From assembly GCA_903856085.1 (NCBI GenBank), contig CAIOAT010000029.1, positions 3,507-67,506 of the forward strand: a stretch of 64,000 bases of DNA, given 5' to 3'. Within the stretch, counting starts at the first letter, position 1. Every line of letters starts with the position of its first letter. Below are positions 20,810-45,117 of this stretch, piece by piece. Made by a program: the position numbers and the translations under genes. Origin of the DNA: Candidatus Omnitrophota bacterium. Lineage in GTDB: Bacteria; Omnitrophota; Omnitrophia; Omnitrophales; Aquincolibacteriaceae. The notes beneath the pieces were generated by a model. The model saw nothing but the letters and a program-made list of their open reading frames with translations. It searched no databases and was not told the origin of the DNA.

Positions 20810-20817
20810 GGAAAAAT

Positions 20818-25010: not shown

Positions 25011-25022
25011 TTCGGAGGATAT

Positions 25023-25916: not shown

Positions 25917-25952
25917 AACATATAACTTGTTTATAGAGAAGGAGTTAAAAAA

Positions 25953-28499: not shown

Positions 28500-28543
28500 A
28501 CAAACTCATTTTAAAGTAAAAAAGCCAAGGAGTTTTTGCCGTC

Positions 28544-31000
28544 ATGCCCAGAAAATCCAAAGAAAGAAAAAAAGCGGAAGCAAAAATGCTTTTGAAGGAA
28601 GACGGGGTCGAAAAGAAATTCGCTTCAAAATACGGTTACTTCACGGCCGATGGGCGCGAGTTTGTCATCACGCGTCCGGATACGCCGCGCCCGTGGGTGA
28701 ACGTGATCTCCAACGGGGATTATGGCGTGATCGAAACGCAAACCGGTTCCGGATTTTCATGGCGCGACAACTCGAACCTGTCACGCGTCACGCGCTGGGA
28801 TCAGGATTTGATCCGTGACAACTGGGGCAAATATATTTATGTGCGCGACCGGGATAACGGAGACTATTGGTCCGGGACCTGGAAGCCGTGCATGCCGAAG
28901 TATGATTTTTTTGAAGTAAGACACGGGCAGGGATATTCGATCCTGACGAGCAAACTTCACGGGATAAGGCTTGAGAAAACGATCTTTGTCGACGTGGAAG
29001 ATCCGGTCGAGGTTTGGAAGGTCGTTTTGACGAATCAATCCGGGAAAAAACGCCGCTTGAGCCTTTTTACCTATTTTGACTGGTGTCTCGGAAATTGGTC
29101 GGACACGCATCGTGAATTTCATAAAACGTTCATCGAGACCTGGATCGATAAAAAGAACGGTTGTGTCCATGGCGTCAAGCGCGCGCCGCTCGTGCCTGGA
29201 TTTATTTCAACCGGGATGACCGAAAAACCGCTTCAAGGGTTCCACGCGGCGAACCCCAAACCTGTGGCCTATGACGGCGACAAGGAATCTTTTCTGGGAC
29301 GCTATGGTGAGATCCACGCGCCGGCCGCGGTGGTGGAAGGAAAATGCCGGAACTCGGAAGGGAAGTGGGGCGATGCGTCGGCGAGCCTCCAAGTCGACGT
29401 CGAGCTCGATCCTAAGGAGTCCAAAACCGTGATCTTCACGCTGGGTTCGACGCGCAACCGGGAAGAAGCCGAACGGATCATCCAAAAATATTCTCACCCC
29501 AGGGTCGTGGAACAGGAGCTTCACAAGGTCAAGGCGCTTTGGGATTCTTTTATCCATGCCTCCGAGATTGAAACGCCGGACGAAGCAATGAATTTCATGA
29601 CGAACACCTGGATGAAGTATCAGGCGATCTCCGCGCGCATCTGGGCCAAGTGCGCTTATTACCAGTCAAGCGGCGGCTACGGGTTCCGGGACCAATTGCA
29701 AGATTGCCAGATCTTTTTCGCGACAAGGCCCGAACTCGCAAAAAAACAGATCCTTCTTCACGCGGAGCAACAATTTCCGGACGGGACGGTCTATCACTGG
29801 TGGCATCACGGCACGAATATCGGCGCCATTACGCATTGTTCCGACGACTTGCTGTGGCTTGATTTCATCACGCTGAACTATCTTGATGAAACCGCCGACG
29901 ATGCGATCCTGAATGCGGTGGTGAAATTCCTGCCTGATCCGAAAACCAAAGAGGTCGCCTCGGGGACACTTTACGATCACATGCTTCGTGCGATCGACAA
30001 GGCGCTTACGAGGTTCTCGCCGCGCGGGCTGCCCTTGATCGGCGAATGTGATTGGAACGACGGGCTAAGCCATGTGGGCACGAAGTGGAAAGGCGAGTCA
30101 ATCTGGCTCGGGCATTTTCTCTACGGCATTTTGAACCGGATTGCTCCGATCATGGAAAAGCGTGGCGATAAAACAAAAGCTGCGGAATATCTCCGTCGCG
30201 CGGAGGCGATGAAAAAAGCGCTCAACACCGAAGGATGGGACGGGGAATGGTATTTGGGGGCGACTCGCGACGACGGAAGACCGCTCGGCAGCAAAAAATG
30301 TGAGACCGGAAAAATCTTCCTTAATTGTCAAACCTGGGCCGTCATTACGGGCGTGGCGGACGCAAAGCGCGCTCGAATTGCAATGGATTCAGCCGCGAAG
30401 TGGCTTTACAAAAAATACGGGCCGCTTCTTTTGACGCCTGGCTATAACACGACCGACGCGACGATCGGTTACATCACCCGTTACGCTCCCTCCGTCCGTG
30501 AGAACGGCGGGCTTTACACGCATGCCGGCACCTGGGCGATTCAGGCGGAAGCGATAATGCGCGACGGAGAAAAGGCGCATCAAGTTTACAAGAGTTTTAA
30601 CCCCGCGACGCGCGGTCTGGAACCGGATATTTATTACAGCGAGCCTTATGTGACGCCTGGAAATGTAGACGGGCCGGACTCACCCAACAATGGCCGCGGC
30701 GGCTGGACTTGGTATACGGGTTCCGCGGCGTGGTATGAGGTGGTGGCCATGAACTGGATCTTGGGCATTCGTCCTACCGCCAAGGGATTGATCGTAGATC
30801 CCGTGATCCCTAAGAAATGGCCAGGATTCAAGATGAAACGCCTTTTCCGAGGCAGCACCTACTTGATCGAGGTAAAAAACCCCCAACAAACCGGGCAGGG
30901 GGTCCAGTCTGTCGTGGTGGATGGGAAAAAGCAGAAGGAAAATCTTATCCCGGACCTGCGGGACGGCAGAACTCACCGGGTTGAAGTTACGCTCGGATAA
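28544..31000 (+). CDS. GH94-family glycoside phosphorylase (cellobiose / beta-1,2-oligoglucan phosphorylase-like)
   Basis: The N-terminal sugar-binding domain reads ITRPDTPRPWVNVISNGDYGVIETQTGSGFSWRDNSNLSRVTRWDQD...GKYIYVRDRDNGDYWSGTWKP, which matches the cellobiose-phosphorylase N-terminus. The catalytic-barrel motif is YYQSSGGYGFRDQLQD. It is 818 aa. Confidence 0.8.
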   Translation: MPRKSKERKKAEAKMLLKEDGVEKKFASKYGYFTADGREFVITRPDTPRPWVNVISNGDYGVIETQTGSGFSWRDNSNLSRVTRWDQDLIRDNWGKYIYVRDRDNGDYWSGTWKPCMPKYDFFEVRHGQGYSILTSKLHGIRLEKTIFVDVEDPVEVWKVVLTNQSGKKRRLSLFTYFDWCLGNWSDTHREFHKTFIETWIDKKNGCVHGVKRAPLVPGFISTGMTEKPLQGFHAANPKPVAYDGDKESFLGRYGEIHAPAAVVEGKCRNSEGKWGDASASLQVDVELDPKESKTVIFTLGSTRNREEAERIIQKYSHPRVVEQELHKVKALWDSFIHASEIETPDEAMNFMTNTWMKYQAISARIWAKCAYYQSSGGYGFRDQLQDCQIFFATRPELAKKQILLHAEQQFPDGTVYHWWHHGTNIGAITHCSDDLLWLDFITLNYLDETADDAILNAVVKFLPDPKTKEVASGTLYDHMLRAIDKALTRFSPRGLPLIGECDWNDGLSHVGTKWKGESIWLGHFLYGILNRIAPIMEKRGDKTKAAEYLRRAEAMKKALNTEGWDGEWYLGATRDDGRPLGSKKCETGKIFLNCQTWAVITGVADAKRARIAMDSAAKWLYKKYGPLLLTPGYNTTDATIGYITRYAPSVRENGGLYTHAGTWAIQAEAIMRDGEKAHQVYKSFNPATRGLEPDIYYSEPYVTPGNVDGPDSPNNGRGGWTWYTGSAAWYEVVAMNWILGIRPTAKGLIVDPVIPKKWPGFKMKRLFRGSTYLIEVKNPQQTGQGVQSVVVDGKKQKENLIPDLRDGRTHRVEVTLG

Positions 31001-31008
31001 ATTAAAAA

Positions 31009-33105
31009 ATGACCCTTCAAAAGAAGCATTTCCTGGGCGTGAGGCAACTCCCGGGAAATGCTTTTTTGTTTTTTGTCGCCGCGTGTTTTCTTGGAGCGTT
31101 CCTTCCGACGAGTCTCGCTGTCCCCAAAACCCAGAAACAAAAACCCAAGGAGACCTATGTTCAACAAATTGGTCCCGCAAGCGGAGAAGCGCCGCTTGAT
31201 ATTGGGAAAGTCTACAACATCGTTCCTGCCGGCAAACCCCTTCGGGTCTCGACTCAATTTAAGGTCGTGGATGATTTTAACGCCGGAGAGCTCAAGAACA
31301 GTCTTGGGGGGGCCTGGATTGTAGACAAAGGGGAGGAAAAAAAGGTTCGGCTAGATCTGAAAAAAGAAGACGCGCGCAACACGAAAGCCGGAGGCTCTTT
31401 ATGGGCGAGAGTCAATCTCAAGAGAAAAGAAAAAGCGACTTTCAAAACCTCTCTTGAAAGGCTGGATATGAGCGCGGCCCACTACCTTGCGCTTAAGTGC
31501 AAAACCGATTCTTCAGCGCCTTTTAAAGGACGCCTGCGCATTGCCCTGACGGATTGGGCGGGGAAGACCGTGGAGAAGGACATCACAGACGCTTGCCTAG
31601 AAAAAGAAGGGTGGAATGAAGCGGTTCTGCCGATGCAGGTTTTTATGGGCGTCGATCTTGATCAGCTGAAGTTTCTTTCTTTCAGTGCGTTTGCGCGGGA
31701 CCGGAACCTGGCGGGAAAACTGGGACTGGACGAAATTACTTTCGTGGGACATTCAGAGGTTGGATTTGAAAGCGTGGAGGATAATTTTGTCGGGTTCCCA
31801 CACTCCGTTTTGGACGAGCACCGGCGCGAAGAGCTTTTGGCGACCCGAAGCGACAAAGAACTGCTTTTGAAGATCGCCAAAGATACCTGGCAGTATTTTG
31901 AAAATGCTACCGACAAAAGGAACCATCTTATCTCGGACCATTTTAAGGTCGGGGATTTCCCGCTCGCGGCCGCCTACACTTCCCCCACGAATATCGCCCT
32001 GGATCTTATGGGGACCGTCGCCGCAAGAGAGCTGAAGATCATTACTCCGGAAGCAGCGGCCAAGCGCGTTCAGAACAATTTGAAAACACTTAAAAAGCTG
32101 GATGCGTGGAAAGGCTTTTTTTTCAACTTTTATGAAACGACCCAGCTAGGGGTGTCCAACCAGTTCGTTTCAAGCGTGGACAACGGATGGCTTGCCATTG
32201 CGCTTGTGGTCGTTCGCCAGGCTTTTCCGGGGGAGATCGCGCAGGAAGCTACGGCCATTCTGGACCGATTTCATTTCCAAGAGTTCCTGGATCCAGAAAC
32301 CAATCACCTCGCTCTTGGGTACGACGTGACCCGGCAAAGTCCCACTCCGTATCATTATGGAATGCTTGTGACCGAAGCGCGCGCGATGAGTCTTTACGCG
32401 ATCGGCAAGGGAGATCTCCCGAAAGAGCATTGGTGGTATCTTTATCGCACGGCGCCGGACGCGTGGGAATGGCAAACGCAAAAACCAAAGGGCAAAATGA
32501 TCGAGCGGGACAAGGTCAATTATTTCCAGGGTTATTATGAGGAGGGAAAGACAAAATTTGTGCCAAGCTGGGGAGGCTCCCTTTTTGAATTTTTGATGCC
32601 GACGATGGTGATTAACGAACAAAAATTCGCTTCCAAAGGGCTCGGACTCAACGACACGATCGTAACCGAACTTCACCGAGACTACGCCTTGAAGGAAAAA
32701 AAATATCCCGCTTGGGGGATCTCGCCCTCTGCGACCGCTGATGGACGACGCTGGATGTATGGCGAGTACGGTATAAAGAAACTAGGGACGAAAGGGTATC
32801 CCGATCGCGGCGTGATCACTCCCCATGCGAGCTTCCTAGCACTGGACTCTTTGCCCAAGGACGCGATCAAGAATATTCGCAAACTTCTCACGTTTGACCT
32901 TTATGGGGAATATGGCTTTTATGATTCGATCACTTTCCCAGGTCAAAAAGTGAACACTCAATATCTGGCTCTGGACCAAGGGATGGTCCTTATCCCGATC
33001 GCGAACTATCTGAAAAAAGGCGTGATTCAGGACTATTTTCACAGAGACCCCGTCGGTAAAAAAGCGAAAGAGTTATTAGAACAGGAAAATTTTTTCAAGA
33101 ACTGA
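31009..33105 (+). CDS. Secreted protein, putative (alpha/alpha)6-barrel glycoside hydrolase (DUF3131/GH144-like?).
   Basis: It has an N-terminal signal/TM segment and is 698 aa. Its position next to the GH94 phosphorylase and SBP is suggestive. The family assignment is a guess from composition only. Confidence 0.35.
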   Translation: MTLQKKHFLGVRQLPGNAFLFFVAACFLGAFLPTSLAVPKTQKQKPKETYVQQIGPASGEAPLDIGKVYNIVPAGKPLRVSTQFKVVDDFNAGELKNSLGGAWIVDKGEEKKVRLDLKKEDARNTKAGGSLWARVNLKRKEKATFKTSLERLDMSAAHYLALKCKTDSSAPFKGRLRIALTDWAGKTVEKDITDACLEKEGWNEAVLPMQVFMGVDLDQLKFLSFSAFARDRNLAGKLGLDEITFVGHSEVGFESVEDNFVGFPHSVLDEHRREELLATRSDKELLLKIAKDTWQYFENATDKRNHLISDHFKVGDFPLAAAYTSPTNIALDLMGTVAARELKIITPEAAAKRVQNNLKTLKKLDAWKGFFFNFYETTQLGVSNQFVSSVDNGWLAIALVVVRQAFPGEIAQEATAILDRFHFQEFLDPETNHLALGYDVTRQSPTPYHYGMLVTEARAMSLYAIGKGDLPKEHWWYLYRTAPDAWEWQTQKPKGKMIERDKVNYFQGYYEEGKTKFVPSWGGSLFEFLMPTMVINEQKFASKGLGLNDTIVTELHRDYALKEKKYPAWGISPSATADGRRWMYGEYGIKKLGTKGYPDRGVITPHASFLALDSLPKDAIKNIRKLLTFDLYGEYGFYDSITFPGQKVNTQYLALDQGMVLIPIANYLKKGVIQDYFHRDPVGKKAKELLEQENFFKN

Positions 33106-33192
33106 GGAGCGCTAATCCCTTTTCTGGTCGGGGGTTGCGCCTTCTTATAAAAAAGTTTTAATATCCACGACAAGTGGCGCTCAATTAATGCT

Positions 33193-33220
33193 TTGAAAAA
33201 GCATATTGTGGAGTTAAAAT
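33193..33220 (+). promoter_or_regulatory. Candidate promoter upstream of the ROK regulator, with flanking repeated TTGTGG motifs.
   Basis: TTGAAA at 33193-33198, a 16-nt spacer, then TAAAAT at 33215-33220. ATTGTGGAG and ATTGTGGCAC repeats lie nearby. Confidence 0.3.
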
Positions 33221-33263
33221 GAGTGACAATTGTGGCACTTATATAGTTACAAGATAACAAGTT

Positions 33264-34517
33264 ATGAAAACAGCGAATTTTGAAAGGAGCAACCCTTCAA
33301 TGATCATCAAGCAAATGCTCAAAGACCGCACTCTCACCGACAAGGAAAGAAAGAATCTTGGCATTCTCGAGGTTGTCCGCAAGAATGGCCCCATTTCCAG
33401 GACCGATATTTCCAAGCTCACGGAGCTGAACATTGTTACGGTTTCTAACTACGTGAGTCATTACATCAAAAAAGGTCTTGTGATCGAAGGTGAGCTTGAT
33501 GAGTCTACGGGCGGACGAAAACCTGTGCTTGTGGAACTCAACCCCAAGGCTGGCTACATTGTGGGAGTCGGGCTTAACATGATGAGTATGGTTGCTGTGC
33601 TTGTGGATCTTGAGATCAATGTGATCAGCGAGATCAAGCGCGAAAGAGACCCAGAAAATTCTGAGAAGATCATTCATCAGATGGTAGAACTCGCGGCGGA
33701 GATCATTGAAAAGGCCGAGGTCGACAAATCCAAGATCGTCGGACTCGGGGTCGGTATCCCCGGGATTATTGACGAACGGGGGCGCACGATCCGATGGCCC
33801 CAAAGCCTTGGAGACAAAGACATTTCAGTTTGCTCTTCGATCAAGGAAACTTTCGAAAAGCGGCTCAACATTCCGACGATCGTGGAGAATGATGCGAACG
33901 CGGCAGTGCTCGGAGAAAAATGGCTGGGGCTGGATCGCGATGTCCGGAACATGGTCTATATGTTTTCGGGCGTGGGGTGCGGCATTCTCATTAATGAAGA
34001 AATTTATCGGGGAGCGAATGGCGCCGCAGGAGAGCTCGGCATCACGAGCGCGCACGCGACCAAGGACTATTCATTCAAGATCGCGACCCAGCTCGGCCGG
34101 TGGGAAATGGATATTGGCATGGTCCGCCACGCCCGCGAACGGATCGAAAAAGGCGAGCCCTCGATCCTAAAAGATCTGGTCAAGGGAGATCTTTCAAAGC
34201 TGACTTTTAAGGAAATCGTTAAGGCCATCCGGGAAAAAGACGCTTTGGCGATCAAGGTGGCAGAGCAAGCCGGGCAAGACCTTGGCAAGAAGATAGCATT
34301 CATCGTGAATCTTCTCAATCCTGAGGTTGTAGTGATCGGCGGAGGCATTGAGGATTGCGGCGCATCGCTTCTCGACGCGATCAAGAGCACGGTCAAAGAG
34401 TGGTCTGTCGAAGAGGCCGCGACGCAAGTCAAGATCATCCCGTCCGCTTTCGGGGAGAACGCTGTGGCGCTTGGCGTGGTGGGTATTGTGGCTCGCGAAG
34501 TCTTCGCTCAGGCTTAA
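33264..34517 (+). CDS. ROK-family transcriptional regulator (NagC/XylR type)
   Basis: It has an N-terminal wHTH followed by a ROK sugar-kinase-like domain, with GVGIPGIID and ENDANAAVLGE. It is 417 aa. Confidence 0.85.
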   Translation: MKTANFERSNPSMIIKQMLKDRTLTDKERKNLGILEVVRKNGPISRTDISKLTELNIVTVSNYVSHYIKKGLVIEGELDESTGGRKPVLVELNPKAGYIVGVGLNMMSMVAVLVDLEINVISEIKRERDPENSEKIIHQMVELAAEIIEKAEVDKSKIVGLGVGIPGIIDERGRTIRWPQSLGDKDISVCSSIKETFEKRLNIPTIVENDANAAVLGEKWLGLDRDVRNMVYMFSGVGCGILINEEIYRGANGAAGELGITSAHATKDYSFKIATQLGRWEMDIGMVRHARERIEKGEPSILKDLVKGDLSKLTFKEIVKAIREKDALAIKVAEQAGQDLGKKIAFIVNLLNPEVVVIGGGIEDCGASLLDAIKSTVKEWSVEEAATQVKIIPSAFGENAVALGVVGIVAREVFAQA

Positions 34518-34541: not shown

Positions 34542-35570
34542 ATGAAAGCTTTTATACAAGCACTCAAGTCCCGGGTTCTCGCGGGAGGGAACATCACTCC
34601 AGGAGAAGCCCTTTGTCTCAGCTCCATCAAAGACTCTGCAACGCTCGACCTTCTTCTAAGCGCTGCCCACGAGATCACCGCCAAGTTCCGGCCCTCCACG
34701 CCCGATCTCTGCTCGCTTGTAAATGCTAAAAGTTATCTTTGCTCCGAGGATTGCGGTTTTTGTTCCCAATCCTCCCATTACAAAACAGGCGTGAAACGTT
34801 ACCCCCTCATGAGTTCGGAAGAAATTCTGGAAGCAGCCCAAAAAAGCGAAGCCAACGGCGTCCAAAGCTTTTGCGTGGTCACAAGTGGCGAAACTTTAAA
34901 CGATGTCGAATTTGAACAAGTGCTAGCGACTTTTCGCTTGTTAAGCGAGAAGACCCATCTCCAGCTTGATGGGTCCCTGGGGAATCTGACGGCTGAACAG
35001 ATCCGCAAGCTTCGGGAGGCCGGGATGCGGCGTTTCAATCACAATCTTCAATGTTCCCGCGAGTTTTATCCCGAGATTGTTTCCACGCATACCTATGACG
35101 AGCGAATGGAAACTTTGAAATTTCTGGAGGCGAACGGCGTCGAGGTGTGTTCAGGCGGTATTTTTGGAATGGGGGAAACGCAGGAAGATCGGATCCGTCT
35201 CGCGTTCGAACTGAAGCCCTACGACCTCCATTGCCTGCCGATCAATATTCTGAATCCGAGACCCGGGACACCGCTTGAGGGACGACAAGCCGTGAATCCC
35301 GAGGAAATCGTGAAGACGGTCGCGATTTTTCGTTTTATTCATCCCCAAGCCAATATCAAACTCGCCGGTGGCCGAGAATTAAATCTGGGCGTTTATTTTC
35401 AGGAAAAGGCCCTTCGCGGCGGGGCGAACGGTTTTGTGGTCGGCGGCTATCTCACGACGGCAGGAAATCCGCTTCAGGAAGATCTCGACATGCTCCGGCG
35501 GTCTGGTTTTTTCTTAGGGGTTGCCCACGAACACGATTGTTGCTCGTCCGGCTGCGAGCAGAAAACGTAG
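34542..35570 (+). CDS. bioB: Biotin synthase (radical SAM)
   Basis: The radical-SAM cysteines are CSEDCGFC (CxxxCxxC). Its length and BioB-like C-terminus fit. Confidence 0.9.
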   Translation: MKAFIQALKSRVLAGGNITPGEALCLSSIKDSATLDLLLSAAHEITAKFRPSTPDLCSLVNAKSYLCSEDCGFCSQSSHYKTGVKRYPLMSSEEILEAAQKSEANGVQSFCVVTSGETLNDVEFEQVLATFRLLSEKTHLQLDGSLGNLTAEQIRKLREAGMRRFNHNLQCSREFYPEIVSTHTYDERMETLKFLEANGVEVCSGGIFGMGETQEDRIRLAFELKPYDLHCLPINILNPRPGTPLEGRQAVNPEEIVKTVAIFRFIHPQANIKLAGGRELNLGVYFQEKALRGGANGFVVGGYLTTAGNPLQEDLDMLRRSGFFLGVAHEHDCCSSGCEQKT

Positions 35571-35573
35571 CCC

Positions 35574-36302
35574 TTGGAACTCCCTCTTCAAGGCAAGACC
35601 CTTCTTATCACGGGCGGTACTAGCCGGCTCGGACAGGCTGTGGTACAGAAAGCCAGCCAGCAGGGCGCACGCGTCTTCTTTACCTACTTCCATTCTACGG
35701 CGCTCGCTCAAGGGCTCGAACAGACCGGCGCCCAGGGATTTGCCGTGGATCTCGCCGACGTCAAGGCCATTGATGCGTTCGCTCAGGTGTTCAGAGAAAA
35801 GGTGGAGTTCCTGGATGTCCTCATTCATAATGCCGCCGCGACCGCGGATGCGCTCATCGAAAAAATGTCCGAAAAAGAGTGGGATGACGTCATGCGGGTC
35901 AATCTTAAGGCGCCTTTTTATCTGACCCAAAAGCTCCTGCCGCTCCTTTTAAGAAAAACGCCAAGCAAGGTCTTTACCCTCGTGAGCCGCGCGGGTTTAA
36001 GCGGGCTTGCCGGAGCCGCGAACTACGCCGCTTCGAAAGGCGGGCTGATCTCCATGACCAAGACGCTTGCCCGGGAGCTTGGACGTAAAAAAATTCTCGT
36101 GAATGCCGTGAATCCAGGGTTTATGCAATCTTCGATCACCGCAAGCGTTCCCCAAGAAATTCTGCAAGAAAATCTCGAAGAGAGTCCGCTCAAAACATTT
36201 TCGGATCCCGGAGAAGTCGCGGATTTTCTTCTTTTTCTCTCCTCAGACCGGATGCGCCAGGTGACGGGGCAAGTGTTTCATTTTGAATCCCGACCTTTCT
36301 AA
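35574..36302 (+). CDS. SDR-family 3-oxoacyl-ACP reductase-like protein embedded in the bio operon.
   Basis: The Rossmann motif is ITGGTSRLG. The catalytic triad is S...YAASKGG. It resembles FabG. Confidence 0.85.
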   Translation: MELPLQGKTLLITGGTSRLGQAVVQKASQQGARVFFTYFHSTALAQGLEQTGAQGFAVDLADVKAIDAFAQVFREKVEFLDVLIHNAAATADALIEKMSEKEWDDVMRVNLKAPFYLTQKLLPLLLRKTPSKVFTLVSRAGLSGLAGAANYAASKGGLISMTKTLARELGRKKILVNAVNPGFMQSSITASVPQEILQENLEESPLKTFSDPGEVADFLLFLSSDRMRQVTGQVFHFESRPF

Positions 36303-36418
36303 GGTAGAATTTTCAGCCAACGGTTGACGCGCCAGCGCTTTTGCGCCGAAGGATGCATCTGTCCGACGAATTGAGGCAGGGTGTTGGGCGAACAAGACCT
36401 GAAGGGATCATCAAGAAC

Positions 36419-37624
36419 ATGAAACGACGCGTGGTAGTCACGGGCATGGGGGTTCTTTCGCCGATCGGGAACACGCTTGCCAAATTTCGAGAGAACCTCA
36501 AAGCCGGTGTTTCAGGAAAAGACTCCGGCGATCACTACGAGGTCGACGGGTATAAATTTCCGCCAGTTTTTCCCCTCAGAAATTTCAACCCGCGGCCATA
36601 TGGAACACATATTCTGGATCCTTTCATTCAATATGCCGTGGCGGCTGCAGATCAAGCCGTTCTTGACGCTCAGTTCGACGTTGCGGCCGTAGATCCTTAC
36701 GCGATCGCTCTTTCCGTTAGTTCGAGCAAGGGCGGCGTCCACAGCCTCGGTCGTTTTAAAGAGCGATTCTTACGAAATCCAAGCGCGATCCTGGGCGCAA
36801 GAATGTTCACGAGCGCGGTTCCGAACTTCGCGGACCAATGGATCGCCCGGCGCATGAAAATTCAAGGTCCGGCCAAATGCTATGTTGCTGCGTGTGCGAC
36901 CGGAACCGTGGCTATTGTTCAGGGCTTTCGCATGGTCTCCGAAGGGCAGGCGGAATATTGCCTTGCCGGAGCCACAGACGCTTCGATTACGCCGCTCATG
37001 CTGGGCGGTTACAAAAATATGAAAGCGCTTGCGACTAAAGACATACGTCCGTTCGACAAAAGGCGCAATGGATTTTTGGTGGGCGAAGGCGCGGGGGTGG
37101 TTTTTCTCGAGACGCTTGAAAGCGCGAAGGCGCGTGGCGTAAAAATCTACGGCGAGATCGTCGAGGCTGCCTACGGCCAGGATAGCAAGCAGCCAATTCT
37201 TTTTGATTTGAACGAACACGCCTTATCGCACACCTTGAAGGTTCTTCTCAAGAGAGCCGGCATCGCTTCCCGGGATATTGATTATATGAATCTACACGGC
37301 ACGGGTACGAGGCACGGAGATCTTTATGAGACGCTAGAACTTAAAGAAGCTCTTGGTGAAGAAGCTTACAAAATTCCGATGAGTTCGACTAAGGGGGCGA
37401 CCGGGCATATGCTCGGAGCGACGGGTGCTGTTGAGATCATTGCGACATTTCTCGGAATCCACGAGGAATTTATCCCGCCGACCGTGGGCCTTGAAGAAAA
37501 GGATCCTGCCTGCGATCTGGATTATACCCCCGGGAAAATGCGACAGCGCAAGATCACAAACGCCGTCAAAGTTTCTATGGGTTTTGGCGGCCAAGTTGCA
37601 GCTGTGCTGCTGCGTAAAATATGA
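36419..37624 (+). CDS. Beta-ketoacyl-ACP synthase (elongating KAS I/II type) embedded in the bio operon.
   Basis: The start is MKRRVVVTGMGVLSPIGN. The active-site cysteine is in ACATG, and the histidines are in HGTGT and GHMLGATG, giving a Cys-His-His triad rather than the KAS III type. Confidence 0.85.
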   Translation: MKRRVVVTGMGVLSPIGNTLAKFRENLKAGVSGKDSGDHYEVDGYKFPPVFPLRNFNPRPYGTHILDPFIQYAVAAADQAVLDAQFDVAAVDPYAIALSVSSSKGGVHSLGRFKERFLRNPSAILGARMFTSAVPNFADQWIARRMKIQGPAKCYVAACATGTVAIVQGFRMVSEGQAEYCLAGATDASITPLMLGGYKNMKALATKDIRPFDKRRNGFLVGEGAGVVFLETLESAKARGVKIYGEIVEAAYGQDSKQPILFDLNEHALSHTLKVLLKRAGIASRDIDYMNLHGTGTRHGDLYETLELKEALGEEAYKIPMSSTKGATGHMLGATGAVEIIATFLGIHEEFIPPTVGLEEKDPACDLDYTPGKMRQRKITNAVKVSMGFGGQVAAVLLRKI

Positions 37625-38790
37625 AACAAGGTTATTTGCAGGGAATAGAACAACTGAAACATGACAATCTCTATCGCAAACTCCGCGTCCTGGAAAGGCA
37701 TGAAGGCGTGCGGGCTTTTTTTAAAGGCCGCAAATTGCTGCTTTTTTGTAGTAATGATTATCTAGGGCTAAGCCGGCATCCCCGCGTGGTTCATGCGGCC
37801 CAAAAGGCGCTGAAAAAATATGGCGTGGGAGCAGGCGCCGCGCGGCTTATCTCGGGAACCACGGACGCTCACACTGCCCTCGAAAAAAAGATCGCGCAAT
37901 TTAAAAGAAAAGAAAGCGCGCTTGTGTTTGCCGCTGGGTTTCTCGCGAATCTCGGCATTTTGACGACCTTTGCTGGCGAGCAAGACGTTATTATCATGGA
38001 CAAACTTTGTCACGCGTCGCTCGTGGAGGGTGCCCGTCTTTCAAAAGCCGAATTTCGCGTCTTTCCGCATAAAAACTATAAAAAATGTGAAGATCTTCTT
38101 CGGGGCGCACAAGGCGCGCGACGGCGGATCCTCGTGACCGAAACGGTCTTTAGCATGGATGGAGACCTTGCGGATCTCAAGGAGCTTGTCCGGTTGAAAG
38201 AAAAATACAATGCATTGCTTGTAGTCGACGACGCGCACGGAACGGGCGTTCTCGGAGCGCACGGACGCGGAGCAACGGAAAATGGCGGTCTGGCCCAAAA
38301 GATAGATATCATTATGGGGACGCTTTCCAAAGCCATAGGCGGGCTTGGTGGGTTTGTGGCCGCGGATAAAATCTTGATCGATTACCTCGTCAATTTTGCA
38401 AGGCCGTTCATTTTTGCCACGGCGCTTCCGCCGGCGCTCTGTGAAGCTGCGCGTGAAGCGTTGTGTGTGATCGACGAAGAGCCGACGGCGAGGGAAAAAC
38501 TTTGGCGAAATATCAGCGCGGTTCATCAAGGATTGACCCGGAGCGGATTCTCGATCGCAAAACCTGAGTCCGCGATCCTGCCCGTCATGGTGGGCGATGA
38601 AGGAAAAGCGATGGAGATTTTTGATAAACTTCTCGCGCGAGGAATTTTTATTCCGGCGGTGCGTTACCCGACTGTTCCCAAAGGCAAAGCCCGGCTCCGG
38701 GTGACCGTTAGCGCCGCGCATTCGGAGAAAGATATTTGCAAGCTCCTGGGGGCATTTCAAGCGCTGAGCCGAGAAGAATTCACCCGATGA
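37621..38790 (+). CDS. bioF: 8-amino-7-oxononanoate synthase
   Basis: The PLP lysine region is GTLSKAIGGLGGFV. The protein is alpha-oxoamine-synthase-like. Its ATG overlaps the KAS stop in an ATGA arrangement. Confidence 0.9.
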   Translation: MKQGYLQGIEQLKHDNLYRKLRVLERHEGVRAFFKGRKLLLFCSNDYLGLSRHPRVVHAAQKALKKYGVGAGAARLISGTTDAHTALEKKIAQFKRKESALVFAAGFLANLGILTTFAGEQDVIIMDKLCHASLVEGARLSKAEFRVFPHKNYKKCEDLLRGAQGARRRILVTETVFSMDGDLADLKELVRLKEKYNALLVVDDAHGTGVLGAHGRGATENGGLAQKIDIIMGTLSKAIGGLGGFVAADKILIDYLVNFARPFIFATALPPALCEAAREALCVIDEEPTAREKLWRNISAVHQGLTRSGFSIAKPESAILPVMVGDEGKAMEIFDKLLARGIFIPAVRYPTVPKGKARLRVTVSAAHSEKDICKLLGAFQALSREEFTR

Positions 38791-39230
38791 AAAAGATTAT
38801 TTCCACGATGGCGGTCATGATGTTTTTGACGTCGTCGAGTTCTTATGCGGAGTTTAAGTCAGCGCAACAGATTGTCCCGACGCCAATGCTCATGCTCATT
38901 CTCAAATCCGATAAACAAACATATATTGCGGATGAGAGAGTCAGTCTTTTGTTAACTGTGAAAAACTTGGGCTCTCAAGGGGCGCAGCTCTTTGATGGAC
39001 CTTATTTGCGGACAAGGGTGGTGTTCGATAACAAGGAATATAAAAACACAGGCGGTATCGCTTGGGGCGGGCCCGATGCTGTTCCGCCGGGGAGTGAAAT
39101 GAACATCGCCGTTGAACTGTCAGCTTATGGCATTACCAAAGATATGTTGAATTCGGGCGAACACTCTGTTGTTGTAAAGCTAAACGGAGCTATTTCTAAC
39201 GCTCTCAGTTTCAAAATCAAAGAGAAATGA
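38787..39230 (+). CDS. Small secreted protein of unknown function inside the bio operon.
   Basis: The start, MKKIISTMAVMMFLTSSSSYA, overlaps the bioF stop in an ATGA arrangement. The signal peptide is followed by a beta-rich, about 125-aa mature part. Confidence 0.5.
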   Translation: MKKIISTMAVMMFLTSSSSYAEFKSAQQIVPTPMLMLILKSDKQTYIADERVSLLLTVKNLGSQGAQLFDGPYLRTRVVFDNKEYKNTGGIAWGGPDAVPPGSEMNIAVELSAYGITKDMLNSGEHSVVVKLNGAISNALSFKIKEK

Positions 39231-39339
39231 AAAGGCTTGGTGCCGAGCCACAAACTCTAAAGCGGGCGGACGTAATGCTTTCATCCCCGGCGATAAAAAA
39301 TCAGACAAGGTTATCAAGAGAACTTAGGACCGTTATAAA

Positions 39340-40692
39340 ATGAAAACAAAAACTTTGATAGCAAAAGACAGAAAATATCTTTGGCATCCATTCACCCAGA
39401 TGCAGGACTGGCAGACGGAGGAGTTTCCAGTCATTGAAAAAGGGGACGGGTGTTATCTGATCGACACGGAAGGTCGTCGTTATCTGGACGGAGTGTCGTC
39501 GCTTTGGTGCAATGTGCATGGGCACAAGGTCAAAGAACTCGATCGCGCGATCAAAAAGCAGCTTCAAAAAATCTCACACACCACGTTTCTGGGTCTGACG
39601 CATCCCACGGCTATCGAACTTGCCGAAAAGCTCGCCGCCATTGCTCCCAAAGGTTTGACCCGTGTTTTTTATTCAGATTCCGGATCTGAGGCTGTGGAAA
39701 TCGCGCTCAAAATGGCATTTCAGTATTGGGCGCAAAAAGGCCACCCCGAGAAGAAAAAGTTCGCAAGACTCGAAAATGCTTATCATGGCGATACACTCGG
39801 AGCTGTAAGTGTCGGCGGGATCGATCTATTCCACCAGATTTACAAACCGCTTTTATTCAATACTTTTGCGATCCCGTCGCCTTACCGCTATCGCTGGGAA
39901 ACAGGCAGCGATCCGGAAAAAGTTAAAAACGAGTCGCTCAATAGCATGGAGGAAATTCTTAGGGAGCATCACCAGGAGATCGCCGCGTTCGTGATGGAGC
40001 CATTGATGCAAGGAGCTGCGGGGATGATCGACCAGCCCACGGGATACATTTCCCGTGCCAGGGAGTTGACGCGAAAGTATAATACTCTCCTGATCTTTGA
40101 CGAGGTTGCAACAGGGTTCGGGCGAACCGGGGAAATGTTCGCCGCGGATCATGAAAGCGTGACGCCGGACATTATGGCAGTTGCCAAAGGCATCACGGGC
40201 GGTTACCTGCCTCTTGCGGCGACGCTTGCAACCGAAGAAGTTTATGACGCGTTCCTGGGCCGGTACGAAGAATTCAAGGCCTTCTTTCATGGCCATACAT
40301 ACACAGCGAATCCGTTAGCTTGCGCGGCGGCGATCGCGAATCTTGAGATTTTTGAAAAACAAAAAACGCTCGAAAAGTTACAGCCCAAGATCCGGCTCAT
40401 AAAAAAACGGCTCGAGGGATTTTACAAACTCAAATGTGTGGGTGATATCAGGCAATGCGGCATCATGGTCGGGATCGAGCTTGTCAGGGACAAGGCGACC
40501 AAGGAACCGTTTGACGCAAAAGAAAAAGTGGGTGTTCGCGTGATCGAACGGGCGCGAAAAAAAGGCGCGATCCTCCGGCCGCTGGGTTCGGTGATTGTAC
40601 TTATGCCGCCCTTGGCGATGACAGAAAGAGAATTGGACCGGCTGCTTGATATTACTTATGATTCAATCGAAGAAACTACCAATAAGCGATAG
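39340..40692 (+). CDS. bioA: Adenosylmethionine-8-amino-7-oxononanoate aminotransferase
   Basis: It is a class III aminotransferase of 450 aa, with DEVATGFGRTG and the PLP lysine in VAKGITGGYLP. Confidence 0.92.
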   Translation: MKTKTLIAKDRKYLWHPFTQMQDWQTEEFPVIEKGDGCYLIDTEGRRYLDGVSSLWCNVHGHKVKELDRAIKKQLQKISHTTFLGLTHPTAIELAEKLAAIAPKGLTRVFYSDSGSEAVEIALKMAFQYWAQKGHPEKKKFARLENAYHGDTLGAVSVGGIDLFHQIYKPLLFNTFAIPSPYRYRWETGSDPEKVKNESLNSMEEILREHHQEIAAFVMEPLMQGAAGMIDQPTGYISRARELTRKYNTLLIFDEVATGFGRTGEMFAADHESVTPDIMAVAKGITGGYLPLAATLATEEVYDAFLGRYEEFKAFFHGHTYTANPLACAAAIANLEIFEKQKTLEKLQPKIRLIKKRLEGFYKLKCVGDIRQCGIMVGIELVRDKATKEPFDAKEKVGVRVIERARKKGAILRPLGSVIVLMPPLAMTERELDRLLDITYDSIEETTNKR

Positions 40693-40767
40693 CGGTTCAC
40701 GGGCCATGTACCATGAGCCGGATACTGCCTTTGCATGGACCGTAGGGTGTGGACTGTGGAGCGCGTT

Positions 40768-41505
40768 ATGAAACCAGGTATTTTTATTACAGGAACAGAT
40801 ACCGACGTCGGGAAAACAGTGGTTTCCGCCGGGCTCGCGCTTGTCCTCCGGGGCCGCGGGATGAAGGTTGGCGTGATGAAACCCGTGGCGACCGGCTGCT
40901 ATGGTAGCGATGAAAAGCTTATCTCCCAAGATGCGGCCTTCTTGATGGAAGCTGCCCAAAACGAATACCCGCCGCTCACGAGTCCGTCACGATTCCGCAA
41001 TCCTCTTTCGCCGAACGTTGCGGCCATGCTCGAAAAAAAAGAAGTAGACGTTCCCAACATCCTTAAAAGTTATCGCGAACTTCAGAAACACTATGATTTC
41101 ATAATTGTGGAGGGCGTGGGCGGGCTTATGGTCCCGCTCAAGAAAGATTATTACGTCGCCAACCTTATCCGCGACATGGGATTGCCGATCGTGATCGTGT
41201 CGTACGCGGGGCTTGGTGCGATCAATCACACGCTGCTTACCGTGGATGCAGCCACGATCCGGGGGCTGGAAGTGCGCGGCATTATCTTTAACCGTGTCGC
41301 CGTGGCGAATTATTCGCTGGCCGAACTTACGAACCCGAAGGTCATTCATGACCTTTCCGGCGTTCCGATCCTTGGCAGCTTGCCCAACATTGAGGGTCTG
41401 AACATGGACAACTGTCAGTTCGGGAAGCTTAAGGAGATTTTCCAGGAGCGCATTCGAGTCGACAAGATCGCGGGAAATCTTGTCGGTGCCATCCCCCAAA
41501 AATAA
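40768..41505 (+). CDS. bioD: Dethiobiotin synthetase
   Basis: The start is MKPGIFITGTDTDVGKT, which includes the P-loop. Confidence 0.9.
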   Translation: MKPGIFITGTDTDVGKTVVSAGLALVLRGRGMKVGVMKPVATGCYGSDEKLISQDAAFLMEAAQNEYPPLTSPSRFRNPLSPNVAAMLEKKEVDVPNILKSYRELQKHYDFIIVEGVGGLMVPLKKDYYVANLIRDMGLPIVIVSYAGLGAINHTLLTVDAATIRGLEVRGIIFNRVAVANYSLAELTNPKVIHDLSGVPILGSLPNIEGLNMDNCQFGKLKEIFQERIRVDKIAGNLVGAIPQK

Positions 41506-41587: not shown

Positions 41588-43027
41588 ATGATTCTCTCTA
41601 ATAAAAATCACCGGGTAACCATGACAGCCCAAGGCGCCATTCCTGAAAAGAAGAAAAGACCAGGACGGAAAGCGATCGGCATTCGGCTTGAAAGAAAAAA
41701 AGATGCGAGCCTGCTTAACTGGAATCTTAAGCGTCCTTATCCTCCCGAAAAGATACACATTCCCATCCCCGTAGCTGCAGAGCCGTGTGTTCGGGTCGGA
41801 GACATTGTTCAGACGGGACAAAAGATCGCAGAGCCGAAGGGGCCGGGAGGTGTAAGCCTTCACGCCAGCATGCCAGGAGTCGTGGAAAGGATCGAGAATT
41901 TTCCCGATGCGGTGGGACGGAAAAGTTTGATGATTGAAATCCGCAAGCACGGGGAACCCAAGCCTATTCCGGCTGCGGAAGCTCGCAAAGGATGGACCGA
42001 GATTCCGGCAGAAGAGCTCTTGAGGATTTTTCAATATTCCGGGCTTGTGACCACGGACCCACGCATGGAACCCGTTCACGTCAAGCTTGGACGACATGCC
42101 GGAGCGCGAACGATCATCATCAACGGTTGTGAACCAGAGCCTTACATCACCGGCGAACAAGTGCTCACCCTTTCGCATCCCGTGGAAATATTAAAAGGCG
42201 CTGAATTACTCAAAAAAGCCCTCGGCGCGGTTCCCACACCGATCAATTTCAGAGGGTCTGAAATGGGGGCCGTCCCGGCTACCGTCGATCCACAGAAAAT
42301 AAAAATTGGGGCGGAAAAAATCATTTTTGCACTTGAGAACTCAAACCTGGAGATGATGGAGCTCATTAAGAGCAAGATCTACTTTCTGAAGTGGGAGCAC
42401 GCCGAAGTGCGGAGCGTGCCTGCGCTTTACCCGCAGGGTTTGGAAAGCACCCTGCTTCAGGCATGGTTTCCGGGGGAGGAGGAGAAGGCTGTTGTGTTCC
42501 CGGCATCTACGGCATTCGCAGCCTATGAAGCCGTCGCACTAGGGAAATCTTTTTATGAAAAAGTCGTGACCGTGGGAGGCGAATGTGTGGTTGAACCACG
42601 CAGTCTTTGGCTGCCGATCGGAATCTCATTCCACGATGCGATCCAAGCCTGCAAAGGAGTCATGCGCGAGCCGCAAAAGATCCTGATGGGTGGGCCGATG
42701 GCCGGGACAGTGCAGGCGACATCGGAAGTTCCCGTGATGGTCGGTACGACTGCCATCCTCGCGCTTCCCAAAGAGGTTGTAAAAGATGCGATAGCGGAAC
42801 CCTGCATTCGATGCAATCTTTGCGTGGACCATTGTCCCGTCTCGCTTTCACCGGCGATGATCACGTTGGCTGCGGACCAAAAAGAATTCGCGACTGCGGA
42901 GGAATGGGGTGTTTCGGAATGCATCGAATGCGGGAATTGCGCCTATGTATGTCCGTCCAAGCGGCCGATGCTGGAGCTGATCCGTTTGGCGCGCTCACGG
43001 GGAGAAGCGGCGGTGGGTCATGGCTGA
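41588..43027 (+). CDS. rnfC: RnfC-like subunit with two 4Fe-4S ferredoxin motifs and a degenerate flavin/NADH loop.
   Basis: It aligns by eye to RsxC/RnfC: IINGCEPEPYITGEQ, ILMGGPMAGT, and two CxxCxxCxxxCP motifs (CIRCNLCVDHCP, CIECGNCAYVCP). Where RnfC has GLGGAGFPTG, this protein has SGLVTTDPRMEP. Confidence 0.72.
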   Translation: MILSNKNHRVTMTAQGAIPEKKKRPGRKAIGIRLERKKDASLLNWNLKRPYPPEKIHIPIPVAAEPCVRVGDIVQTGQKIAEPKGPGGVSLHASMPGVVERIENFPDAVGRKSLMIEIRKHGEPKPIPAAEARKGWTEIPAEELLRIFQYSGLVTTDPRMEPVHVKLGRHAGARTIIINGCEPEPYITGEQVLTLSHPVEILKGAELLKKALGAVPTPINFRGSEMGAVPATVDPQKIKIGAEKIIFALENSNLEMMELIKSKIYFLKWEHAEVRSVPALYPQGLESTLLQAWFPGEEEKAVVFPASTAFAAYEAVALGKSFYEKVVTVGGECVVEPRSLWLPIGISFHDAIQACKGVMREPQKILMGGPMAGTVQATSEVPVMVGTTAILALPKEVVKDAIAEPCIRCNLCVDHCPVSLSPAMITLAADQKEFATAEEWGVSECIECGNCAYVCPSKRPMLELIRLARSRGEAAVGHG

Positions 43028-43877
43028 AGCAACGCTTTCCTATAAAAGAGTTTTGCCGCCACACATCCATTCCACGGCTTCTTTGGCGAAGCGTAATTGG
43101 GGGCAGCTGATCGCACTCGCGCCCCTCTTTGTGACAGCCTGTCTTACCGGGCACGCGGAAATTCTGCGCGTTCTTTTGATTTGCCTGGTGAGCGCAGTCG
43201 CGTTCGAATTTCTGGCGGGGAAGCTTTTTCATAAAAAAGAGAGTCTGCGGAACGGCGAAGCCGTGCTTGCCGCAGCCCTCTTCTCGCTCCTTATGCCTTC
43301 AAGATGTCCCTCCGAGGTTGTGATCCTCGGTGTTTTTAGCGCGGTTTTTGCCGCCAAAGAGCTTTTCGGCGGGACAGGCAACTATCTTTTGCATCCGCTT
43401 CTTCTGGCGCGCGTATTTTTACAGCTTTGTTTCCCCAAAGTCATGTCGGAGCCCATGCTTTTAGCAGGCGACGGTAATATTTGGGTGCTTGCTGCAATCG
43501 GTCTCGGTGGGATCATTTTTTTAAAACAAAAACAAGGCTATTGGAAAACACCGATTCTTTTTATGGCGACCTGTTTTATCTGCGAGGCTTTGTTAGGAGG
43601 GCAGGCGATGCCGTTAACGTTTTTTAGCGCCGTTCTTTTCACAGCCTTCTTTCTTTTGGCCGACCCTGTGACCCTGCCGTTGACGCGGAGAGGTACGATG
43701 CTTTTCGTTCTCTGCGCGGCGCTTTTAAGCTCGCGGCTCAGCTCGGAGGGATTTTCGATCCAAGGAGTCGGTTATGCGATTCTTCTGATGAACCTCCTGA
43801 CGCCTTGGCTAGAGGTCTGGCTCAAGCCCACTCCGTACAAGACAAAAAACCAATTCAAAGCGACTTATTTGTCATGA
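43020..43877 (+). CDS. rnfD: RnfD-like membrane subunit, shortened.
   Basis: [27 protein letters not shown] aligns with RnfD's [44 protein letters not shown] aligns with LTDPVTASTTNRGRLIF. It is about 285 aa against a typical ~350, and the periplasmic loop that carries the FMN-attachment Thr appears to be missing. Confidence 0.72.
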   Translation: [285 protein letters not shown]

Positions 43878-44003
43878 ATATAAAAAAAGTAGCAATGGTG
43901 GCAGCGCAATATCTATTCCTGGTGTTTTTTTTGGCATTGCTCGCGGCGATCCTTTACGCGGCACAACTTTTAAGAGGATGAACATGACAGAAGGCCCGGT
44001 TCT

Positions 44004-44582
44004 ATGAAATTACCCGAAAGCCTTTTCTCGAGGATGTTTCTGGCTTACCTTCCCTTTATGGTCTATCCGTACGGTTTTTTCAAGGCCGGCGTTGCAGCGC
44101 TGTGGATCGTCGGCTTTCTCTGGGGCACGGTTACTTTTTTCTGGTTCACGCGTCGCCTTTTCCCTGGCCGTTCTCTAAAACACGCCTTCTTCCTCTGGCT
44201 TATTGTATGGGCACAAGCCGTATGGACGCTCACGAAATTGCCGCCCTACTGGATCGTGAGCGTTTTCTTCCTAACGCCTGTTTCTTTTCTTGACGACGCG
44301 GCGAACCCAAGCCATGTTCGTGTGTTTTCCAAAGAAGTGCCCCGGTATTTTTTTGAACGCGCGCTAGCCGGGGTCGGCTTTGCGGGTTTCGTGATACTGT
44401 TGGCGCTCGTTCGAGAGATCGGTGAAAAACGTCTTGGGATACAAGCGTTCGAGCAGCCGGCGGGCTTGTTGCTTGTGATCGCGGTCGTTGCTTTCTTGTG
44501 GAAAAACCAACCGTACCATATGCGGTCCCAGCGTCCACCCGTTCCAGAAAACTTAAAACTGGGACGGTCCAAGTTCCCATAA
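44004..44582 (+). CDS. RnfA/RnfE-like polytopic membrane protein (divergent)
   Basis: The C-terminal region ALAGVGFAGFVILLALVREIGEKRLG resembles RnfA's [26 protein letters not shown]. It has multiple TM segments. Confidence 0.48.
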   Translation: MKLPESLFSRMFLAYLPFMVYPYGFFKAGVAALWIVGFLWGTVTFFWFTRRLFPGRSLKHAFFLWLIVWAQAVWTLTKLPPYWIVSVFFLTPVSFLDDAANPSHVRVFSKEVPRYFFERALAGVGFAGFVILLALVREIGEKRLGIQAFEQPAGLLLVIAVVAFLWKNQPYHMRSQRPPVPENLKLGRSKFP

Positions 44583-44610
44583 ATGGAAACAAAGACTTTG
44601 CGGAGATAAA

Positions 44611-45117
44611 ATGTATTTTTTGATCATCACCTTTGGCTTTTTGTTGGCAATGCGCGGCGCGAGGCCTGCGCCTCTACAAAGACCCGGCGAAGGACTCGGG
44701 CGCATTTGGAGCGAAGCCACAGATTTTTTTCTTACCACGAGTTTGATCCTTGCTCTTTGGGCGCTTGCCATGGCTTTTGGAAAAACCCAAGCGGGGGCTC
44801 GGGAATATGCGGTCGCGGGGCTTGGAATAGCGGCCTATCTGTTTTCACGGTATCAGAAAAAAACCGATACCTTCTTCCTTTCCGTGTTAGCGAGTGTTTT
44901 TATGATTCTCTCAAGAGAGCCCGATCTTTTGTGGGGGATTTTTCTTGCCTGGATTGTGAGTTCGGGGATCGCGCTTTTTCAGACCTGTTTTCTAGGTTTA
45001 AGATACAAACTTCTTTTTTCGCACGTTCCGACCGCCATGAAGGGATGGCCCATCCTGTGTCTTTTGGCTGGATTGATCTCTGTTGTTTTGCGGAATCTCG
45101 GGAGCTTGGTTTTCTAA
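44611..45117 (+). CDS. RnfA/RnfE-like membrane protein (divergent)
   Basis: LRYKLLFSHVPTAMKGWPILCLLAGLISVV resembles RnfA's [30 protein letters not shown]. It is hydrophobic and 168 aa. Confidence 0.42.
   Translation: MYFLIITFGFLLAMRGARPAPLQRPGEGLGRIWSEATDFFLTTSLILALWALAMAFGKTQAGAREYAVAGLGIAAYLFSRYQKKTDTFFLSVLASVFMILSREPDLLWGIFLAWIVSSGIALFQTCFLGLRYKLLFSHVPTAMKGWPILCLLAGLISVVLRNLGSLVF

Follow-up and report, generated by a model that had tools for sequence, protein, structure and literature searches.

A cluster of biotin (bio) genes in a Candidatus Omnitrophota bacterium (assembly GCA_903856085.1, contig CAIOAT010000029.1) includes, among genes for the late steps of the pathway, one for a condensing enzyme of the β-ketoacyl-acyl carrier protein synthase (KAS) I/II type and one for a FabG-type ketoreductase of the short-chain dehydrogenase/reductase (SDR) family. 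The cluster lies in a 64-kb stretch of this contig, which is the whole of the DNA analyzed here and is referred to as the window. We give slightly more credence than doubt to the explanation that the two enzymes are dedicated to biotin synthesis and would elongate an ω-carboxy acyl chain on acyl carrier protein (ACP) to pimeloyl-ACP, with a lysine and a tyrosine of the KAS anchoring the free carboxylate and with housekeeping ACP, dehydratase and enoyl reductase completing the pathway. A sequence-only reading of the window had argued that the embedded pair builds the pimeloyl thioester in the manner of fatty acid synthesis (FAS). This proposal is now supported by the separate clades in which both enzymes fall, by the linkage of this type of KAS to bio genes and by the replacement of two residues in its acyl pocket. 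All of the evidence is comparative and consists of neighbour counts, alignments and family scores. Coordinates are positions in the window, in which open reading frames (ORFs) of at least 150 aa were scanned with Pfam and NCBIfam, applying the NCBIfam equivalog cut-offs.

The KAS has the Pfam domains ketoacyl-synt and Ketoacyl-synt_C and no match to the ACP_syn_III domain, and the closest solved structure is that of Bacillus subtilis FabF (E = 6e-80). The Cys-His-His triad described in the sequence-only reading was located at C159, H293 and H330, which align with the catalytic residues of Escherichia coli FabF (EcFabF; Table 1), and it is kept in every member of the clade to which the KAS belongs. 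Lys325 (EcFabF Lys335) and a GFGG gating loop (F389) are retained as well, and in the alignments the catalytic residues of both the KAS and the SDR are intact. Nevertheless, the KAS scores below the cut-offs of the FabF models TIGR03150 (Table 1) and PRK07314 (331 vs. 387 bits), and from these scores and its position in a separate clade it is not a housekeeping FabF. NCBIfam was found to hold no curated model for this clade.

What distinguishes the clade is found at the bottom of the predicted acyl pocket. We aligned 230 clade sequences with 77 canonical FabF sequences (76 from the fetched loci described below, plus E. coli FabF), using as numbering references E. coli FabF and FabG sequences that are 100% identical to PDB entries 6okg and 1i01. 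In FabF, I108 and F202 form a back gate at C7-C8 of the bound acyl chain, and the I108F replacement restricts elongation to C8 (PMC9006962). All 230 clade members have Lys at the position of Ile108, where each of the 77 canonical enzymes has I, V, L or M; at the position of Phe202, Tyr is found in 99% of the clade and 0% of canonical FabF (99% Phe). The FabF motif G-S-G-I-G reads S-[ST]-S-K-G in the clade. When 1.84 billion representative proteins were searched, every single-domain match that outscored canonical FabF had this form. Further clade-specific changes, in mature EcFabF numbering, are G107S, G144Q, I148R, G189A, E191D, P272F, A302L and F398M. No solved ketosynthase among the matches carries the SSSKGG/GGY motif pair. 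A neighbour-joining tree of 82 representatives, drawn without bootstrap support, splits exactly into Lys-gated and hydrophobic-gated enzymes. In a plasmid collection only canonical fabF genes were found, with at most 38% identity to the KAS.

In order to see in what company such enzymes are encoded, we fetched 171 loci by KAS sequence alone, comprising 66 Lys-gated and 105 hydrophobic-gated loci. They were obtained by exact-protein look-ups, by a scan of genome contigs with the KAS alignment and by a scan of metagenomes with a 10-residue KAS motif, and both types were returned. The genome-contig scan gave at least 4 relevant loci and at least 76 canonical FabF loci, and the FabF loci were reused as controls. 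Bio genes lie near the KAS gene in 64 of the 66 Lys-gated loci and in none of the 105 hydrophobic-gated ones (0/105), the two exceptions being contigs 1.3-1.5 kb long. Among the hydrophobic-gated loci, three show distant, 28%-identical aminotransferase matches that are not true bio genes. Conversely, with the same queries for both types, acpP is nearby in 76/105 and fabZ in 12/105 hydrophobic-gated loci, compared to 0/66 for each in the Lys-gated loci. Many of these loci are related and do not represent independent events, and a count of lineages is therefore the fairer figure: on clustering at 70% identity, 26 of 28 Lys-gated lineages are bio-linked, and none of the control FabF loci has the arrangement.

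The KAS gene is also associated with bioF, which begins within 400 nt downstream of the KAS gene in 47 of 53 evaluable loci. This adjacency outlasts rearrangements that split bioB-SDR from KAS-bioF and change all of the flanking genes, and the linkage of the KAS to bio genes persists down to about 41% identity and across varied GC content and flanking genes. The nearest named homologs are labelled Candidatus Omnitrophota (87% identity for the KAS and 82% for the SDR), and the best matches to both enzymes in the protein and representative searches were Omnitrophota, TA06 or unlabelled. Neither the best approximately 230 matches nor the 66 Lys-gated loci include one with a Desulfobacterota label or an ACP gene.

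The SDR shows a comparable picture. Its catalytic tetrad is kept (N110, S138, Y151, K155), and since the last two residues have the YxxxK form it is predicted to be a ketoreductase rather than an enzyme of the FabI type. FabG proteins are its closest structural relatives (E = 2e-45), but a score below the equivalog cut-off and a place in a separate clade indicate that it is not a housekeeping FabG. Clade-specific residues comprise A88, R139 (Arg or Gln across the clade), L175, N180, S204 and a C-terminal ESR. In 34 of 48 loci the SDR gene lies upstream of the KAS gene at a distance of no more than 400 nt, and otherwise it stays beside bioB. A deviating arrangement is seen in a TA06-like lineage (L090:10189-11172), where a 327-aa ORF whose N-terminal part gives weak Rossmann matches comes after the KAS and before bioF and bioD, with no SDR nearby; this ORF may be a non-homologous replacement of the ketoreductase.

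The late biotin pathway is complete, as BioF, BioA, BioD and BioB all exceed their NCBIfam equivalog cut-offs. The absence of a known pimelate gene, noted in the sequence-only reading, is borne out within the window: Pfam and NCBIfam scans, and tblastn with BioC, revealed no bioC, bioH, bioI, bioW or bioZ, and the same scans gave no BioE-like gene. Nor did the window yield an ACP (tblastn with E. coli AcpP, Pfam scan) or a match to FabZ (tblastn, Pfam and NCBIfam). The sole methyltransferase encoded in it is PrmC, beside RF-1.

These observations suggest the following model. An ω-carboxy acyl primer, at first malonyl and then glutaryl, carried on the housekeeping ACP, would be bound to Cys159 of the KAS and condensed with malonyl-ACP. 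The SDR would reduce the resulting 3-keto-ω-carboxyacyl-ACP, a housekeeping FabZ-type dehydratase and an enoyl-ACP reductase would close each cycle, and BioF would consume the pimeloyl-ACP formed. With glutaryl on the active-site Cys, the terminal carboxylate is expected to reach the gate (at about C7-C8), where Lys104 and Tyr198, some seven carbons away from the thioester, may bind it and at the same time shut the pocket to longer chains. If the carboxylate is bound in this way, the disguise of the chain as a methyl ester by BioC would be unnecessary. A free carboxylate is favoured over an ester because the gate Lys is both invariant and charged. The first round, from malonyl to glutaryl, could be performed by the same KAS, or glutaryl could come from another source.

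Several points weigh against this model. That Lys104 and Tyr198 lie in the pocket is deduced by homology, from the alignment to EcFabF. A malonyl primer would lie farther from the gate than glutaryl, so that the first round is less well explained than the second. The model assumes that housekeeping acpP, fabZ and fabI genes are present in the same genome. The window covers 64 kb, and a bioC/esterase pair, bioW, bioZ or bioE could lie elsewhere in the genome. The KAS of one locus (P0233, L093) is Lys-gated in a non-bio, lipid-type context, but it has Phe, not Tyr, at the second position. Finally, in one distant relative (L005) a methyltransferase encoded between bioF and bioA has BioC (TIGR02072) as its best match, with E = 8e-19 and 68 bits, below the cut-off of 185.

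The last of these points leads to the alternative that we take most seriously, though we consider it unlikely, namely that the KAS and SDR elongate the chain within a BioC-type pathway, with the methyltransferase and esterase encoded elsewhere and with Lys and Tyr forming hydrogen bonds to the ester. The genes for BioC and the esterase are described as often unlinked from bio operons (PMC5438404), and the genome beyond the window could hold such a pair. Moreover, the KAS of L005 is 44% identical to the one studied here, and in L008 the slot between bioF and bioA holds an ORF of the PEMT/ICMT family, which is of the carboxyl-methyltransferase type. In contrast, a BioC-like gene occurs in the cluster of only 1 of the 28 non-redundant lineages, no cluster was found to contain an esterase, and an invariant buried Lys would be odd for a neutral ester. 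The L005 gene was also considered as proof of a BioC route and rejected on its score, since an unrelated methyltransferase family scores nearly as high (67 bits). With this low score, the equal match to an unrelated family and a location in a slot that gathers unrelated genes, it amounts to weak counter-evidence. L005 is a relative with 40% GC whose slot between bioF and bioA contains two class I methyltransferase genes and one for an RRM protein (L005:10370-11689); tblastn with these methyltransferases as queries revealed no bioC in the window.

It is somewhat less likely still that the KAS performs, like BioZ, a single condensation from C5 to C7, using a glutaryl thioester of catabolic origin (e.g. 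from lysine or glutaconyl-CoA) and malonyl-ACP, after which the SDR would reduce 3-ketopimeloyl-ACP. A gate at C7-C8 suits glutaryl better than a malonyl chain, the cluster encodes just one KAS and one ketoreductase, and BioZ provides a precedent in which one condensation followed by FAS II reduction suffices (PMC7645780). However, KAS I/II enzymes normally use acyl-ACP rather than acyl-CoA, none of the 66 loci has a linked gene for the formation of glutaryl-CoA or for CoA-to-ACP transfer, and no supply of glutaryl-CoA is known in Omnitrophota.

We regard as very improbable that the pair makes some other short product, such as a small polyketide or a C8 precursor of the lipoate type, and is tied to the bio genes by synteny only. 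The locus does lie within a long conserved syntenic block (GH94-ROK-bio-rnf), unrelated cysDN and GGDEF genes also nest in bio clusters of the phylum, and the Lys-gated KAS of L093 stands in a lipid-type context. Against this, the KAS-bioF adjacency survives the rearrangements and changes of flanking genes described above, the pairing with bio genes recurs in lineages that differ in GC content and neighbours, and no alternative candidate source of pimelate is linked to these bio clusters. That the two genes are housekeeping fabF and fabG lying by chance among bio genes is scarcely credible, for although their catalytic apparatus is complete and FabF and FabG are their best family matches, both score under the equivalog cut-offs, the Lys/Tyr gate makes long-chain synthesis unlikely at a position where I108F limits FabF to C8, acpP adjoins none of the Lys-gated genes (compared to 76/105 for canonical FabF), and the linkage to bioF and bioB is retained at about 41% identity.

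Four routes to pimelate have been characterized according to a count of December 2025, namely BioC-BioH, BioI-BioW, BioZ and, in 2025, BioE (PMC12704756). Elongation of a free ω-carboxy chain as proposed here may constitute a fifth route to pimeloyl-ACP that is independent of a methyl ester, in which a KAS II with a polar gate acts as a chain-length ruler and only the KAS and the ketoreductase are specialised. Such a route would occur widely in Omnitrophota and a few further candidate phyla, and its gene content would set it apart from the five-gene module of Desulfovibrio. We put this wider proposal forward tentatively and with rather more reservation than the model itself.

The closest parallel is found in Desulfovibrio. 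In 2004 the extra fab-like genes in its bio operons (ACP, KAS, ketoreductase, dehydratases) were predicted to make the pimeloyl thioester (PMC545781), and in 2023 a study by random barcode transposon-site sequencing (RB-TnSeq) found that these genes, together with a nitroreductase gene, are required for growth without biotin (PMC10102598). The same study reported similar clusters in Chrysiogenetes and two further Desulfobacterota orders, and its authors expected the active sites of the bio-cluster enzymes to be less hydrophobic (PMC10102598). The sequence-only reading had called the role of these sulfate-reducer genes biochemically unresolved; the biochemistry is indeed still missing, but the role now has the genetic support just mentioned. 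The literature that we searched contains no account of the biochemistry of the Desulfovibrio module, of Omnitrophota clusters or of a Lys/Tyr gate. As in the window, D. vulgaris (DVU2558-2565 and the nitroreductase DVU1220) has a fabF-like KAS and a fabG-like reductase gene among bioB, bioF, bioA and bioD, and the cluster lacks bioC and bioH. In contrast, Desulfovibrio possesses a dedicated ACP (DVU2562) and two FabZ-like genes (DVU2560, DORF42491), none of which has a counterpart here or in the 66 related loci. The nitroreductase gene, which is clustered with the others in Syntrophobacter and Desulfobacter, is absent from the window; the clusters of some relatives contain a nitroreductase-family gene whose product has a Sec signal. 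The phyla differ as well, with Omnitrophota and a few other candidate phyla on one side and Desulfobacterota and Chrysiogenetes on the other. In gene content, the basis of this comparison in place of KAS against DVU2563 or SDR against DVU2561 sequences, the Omnitrophota locus resembles a Desulfovibrio-type pathway cut down to two genes, with a common idea and a different gene set. The origin of the Omnitrophota module is perhaps separate.

A second parallel is BioZ, a KAS III of alpha-proteobacteria that is likewise a biotin-dedicated condensing enzyme encoded with bio genes. BioZ can use a primer whose ω-carboxyl is free, and it bypasses BioC and BioH, with polar residues at the bottom of the tunnel holding the carboxyl (PMC7645780, PMC12625853); these are Ser84 and Ser287, which anchor the C5 carboxyl of glutaryl (PMC12625853). 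The free-carboxyl C7 product of BioZ is converted to pimeloyl-ACP by E. coli FabG, FabA and FabI in vitro (PMC7645780). BioZ is, however, a FabH-type enzyme with a Cys-His-Asn triad that uses glutaryl-CoA, whereas the Omnitrophota KAS is of the KAS I/II type with Cys-His-His and is accompanied by its own ketoreductase. FabF of E. coli and B. subtilis shares with this KAS the fold, the Cys-His-His triad, Lys335 and the GFGG loop, at about 37-42% identity, and FabF-type enzymes elongate glutaryl-ACP methyl ester, a biotin intermediate equal in length to a C7 acid, in the classical route (PMC9006962). It differs in the Ile108/Phe202 gate and in its acpP/fab neighbourhood. Similarly, FabG has the N-S-Y-K tetrad in common with the SDR, but the SDR gene adjoins bioB or the KAS gene and not acpP.

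Within bacterial biotin synthesis, the formation of pimelate is what varies and is still incompletely understood, and a survey of Omnitrophota described biotin synthesis as “present but not universal” (PMC10066038). The locus would represent a simpler, two-gene form of the Desulfovibrio idea in a large uncultured phylum, in which the exchange of Ile108/Phe202 for Lys/Tyr in the FabF gate may admit a charged dicarboxylic chain and stop its growth at C7. If true, the proposal would allow better calls of biotin prototrophy in metagenome-assembled genomes that now look incomplete, would offer a compact module for engineered production of biotin or pimelate, and would show which FAS II steps truly need the methyl-ester disguise.

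The order of the genes, bioB-SDR-KAS-bioF-small secreted ORF-bioA-bioD, was confirmed by ORF positions and family scores (Table 1). Some gene callers place the start of the KAS at an upstream ATG at 36353. The claim that most junctions are ATGA overlaps, and that the cluster is thus one transcription unit, turned out to be overstated, since only two of six junctions overlap (KAS/bioF and bioF/147-aa ORF). The others are gaps of 3 nt (bioB/SDR), 116 nt (SDR/KAS), 109 nt (147-aa ORF/bioA) and 75 nt (bioA/bioD), and the distance from the stop codon of the upstream ROK gene to the ATG of bioB, earlier given as 25 bp, measures 24 nt. Co-orientation is weak evidence for an operon, because all large genes between 20.6 and 60.6 kb lie on the + strand, near the dnaA origin region. 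The best match to a promoter lies at 33193-33220, upstream of the ROK gene, and the promoter and terminator scan, which does not settle the transcription units, found no convincing intergenic terminator. Searches upstream of bioB and in the gaps gave no BirA operator or inverted repeat, and an Rfam scan of 33-42 kb gave no RNA elements. Contigs identical to the window occur in freshwater metagenomes.

Table 1 Features of the bio cluster and functional residues of the KAS in the 64-kb window
Feature	Position	Strand	Remarks
ROK-family protein with a weak winged helix-turn-helix at the N terminus	33264-34517	+	Pfam ROK 144 bits, HTH_24 21 bits; context only
bioB, biotin synthase, 342 aa	34542-35570	+	TIGR00433 364 bits (cut-off 225); Radical_SAM and BATS domains
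FabG-type SDR ketoreductase, 242 aa, TTG start	35574-36302	+	Best NCBIfam match TIGR01830 FabG, 197 bits (below cut-off 298)
KAS II-type condensing enzyme, 401 aa	36419-37624	+	TIGR03150 FabF 349 bits (below cut-off 494)
KAS Lys104 codon	36728-36730	+	EcFabF Ile108 (back gate), by alignment
KAS catalytic Cys159 codon	36893-36895	+	Aligns with EcFabF C163
KAS Tyr198 codon	37010-37012	+	EcFabF Phe202 (back gate), by alignment
KAS His293 codon	37295-37297	+	Aligns with EcFabF H303
KAS His330 codon	37406-37408	+	Aligns with EcFabF H340
bioF, 8-amino-7-oxononanoate synthase, 389 aa	37621-38790	+	TIGR00858 466 bits (cut-off 426)
147-aa ORF	38787-39230	+	Sec-type signal peptide (by eye); between bioF and bioA
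bioA, adenosylmethionine-8-amino-7-oxononanoate transaminase, 450 aa	39340-40692	+	TIGR00508 569 bits (cut-off 405)
bioD, dethiobiotin synthase, 245 aa	40768-41505	+	TIGR00347 173 bits (cut-off 83); start codon checked

Neither Pfam nor NCBIfam gave a match to the 147-aa ORF, and a single-sequence model of the protein, which is all-beta, has a confidence too low for a fold search (pLDDT 52). The ORF probably represents a passenger gene in a slot of variable content, judging from relatives in which the slot between bioF and bioA holds genes for GGDEF, Sec-signal nitroreductase-family, TPR or MORN proteins or methyltransferases, or is empty. A GGDEF-domain protein of 256-269 aa occupies the slot in nine loci, including L007:12414-13184 and L008:12460-13230. 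Four to five loci have a nitroreductase-family gene (PF00881, 90 bits) at this place (L104:11505-12155, L107/L108:9858-10508, L116:~10095-10712), with a remnant in L100. This nitroreductase of close relatives recalls the biotin nitroreductase of D. vulgaris, but it has a Sec-type signal peptide. It was considered as the missing enoyl reductase and dropped because of this signal peptide and the lack of a homolog in the window.

Other variants of the cluster were observed among the Lys-gated loci. A cysD-cysNC insertion immediately upstream of the KAS gene separates bioB-SDR from KAS-bioF-bioA-bioD in L006, L008, L009, L091, L123, L132-L134, L136 and L137. Cysteine-synthase-like (PALP) genes lie near the cluster in L007 and L091, and L091 has a ThiS gene too. 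In L139-L141, L153, L160 and L166 the genes bioB-SDR-KAS are followed by one for a 147-aa PilZ protein and then by CstA or aconitase; as no bioF, bioA or bioD lies within 7 kb, the late bio genes of this sub-lineage are presumably located elsewhere. In two related lineages, the strand opposite to the bio cluster carries, just past it, a gene for a FabI-like enoyl-ACP reductase (adh_short_C2, 289 bits; L138:10309-11124 (-) and L142:11218-12030 (-)). In L093:47-2542 the Lys/Phe-gated KAS gene lies between genes for a lipid A-type acyltransferase and a protein of the 8-amino-7-oxononanoate synthase family, and its use is probably lipid-related.

Upstream of bioB the window encodes a sugar-binding protein, a GH94 phosphorylase, a DUF3131/glycoamylase protein and the ROK protein (27204-34517), and the synteny GH94-DUF3131-ROK-bioB is found in 12 loci. 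In these 12 loci the ROK protein is unusually conserved (77-95% identity), more so than BioB. The ROK protein was considered as a regulator of the bio genes and this was dropped, as its gene accompanies GH94 and DUF3131 no less than bioB. Downstream, the bioD-rnfC-rnfD block is syntenic in relatives. In the window (41621-45117) a 35-aa ORF comes after rnfC and rnfD, then two further ORFs without Pfam match (44004-44582 and 44611-45117), and rnfG, rnfE, rnfA and rnfB are not recognisable after rnfD in this region.

The region 11719-26900 is a chromosomal origin neighbourhood, with gyrA, gyrB, dnaN and dnaA on the - strand followed by yidC, mnmG, parA and parB on the + strand. The GC skew changes sign near 18-20 kb, and dips in GC content, to about 0.42, are seen at 18-20 kb and at 24-26 kb. 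At the beginning of the window, the region 608-10128 (- strand) looks like a sulfated glycan locus and, besides cysD (6800-7705) and a fused cysN/cysC gene (4872-6800), encodes two sulfotransferases together with several GT2/GT92 glycosyltransferases.

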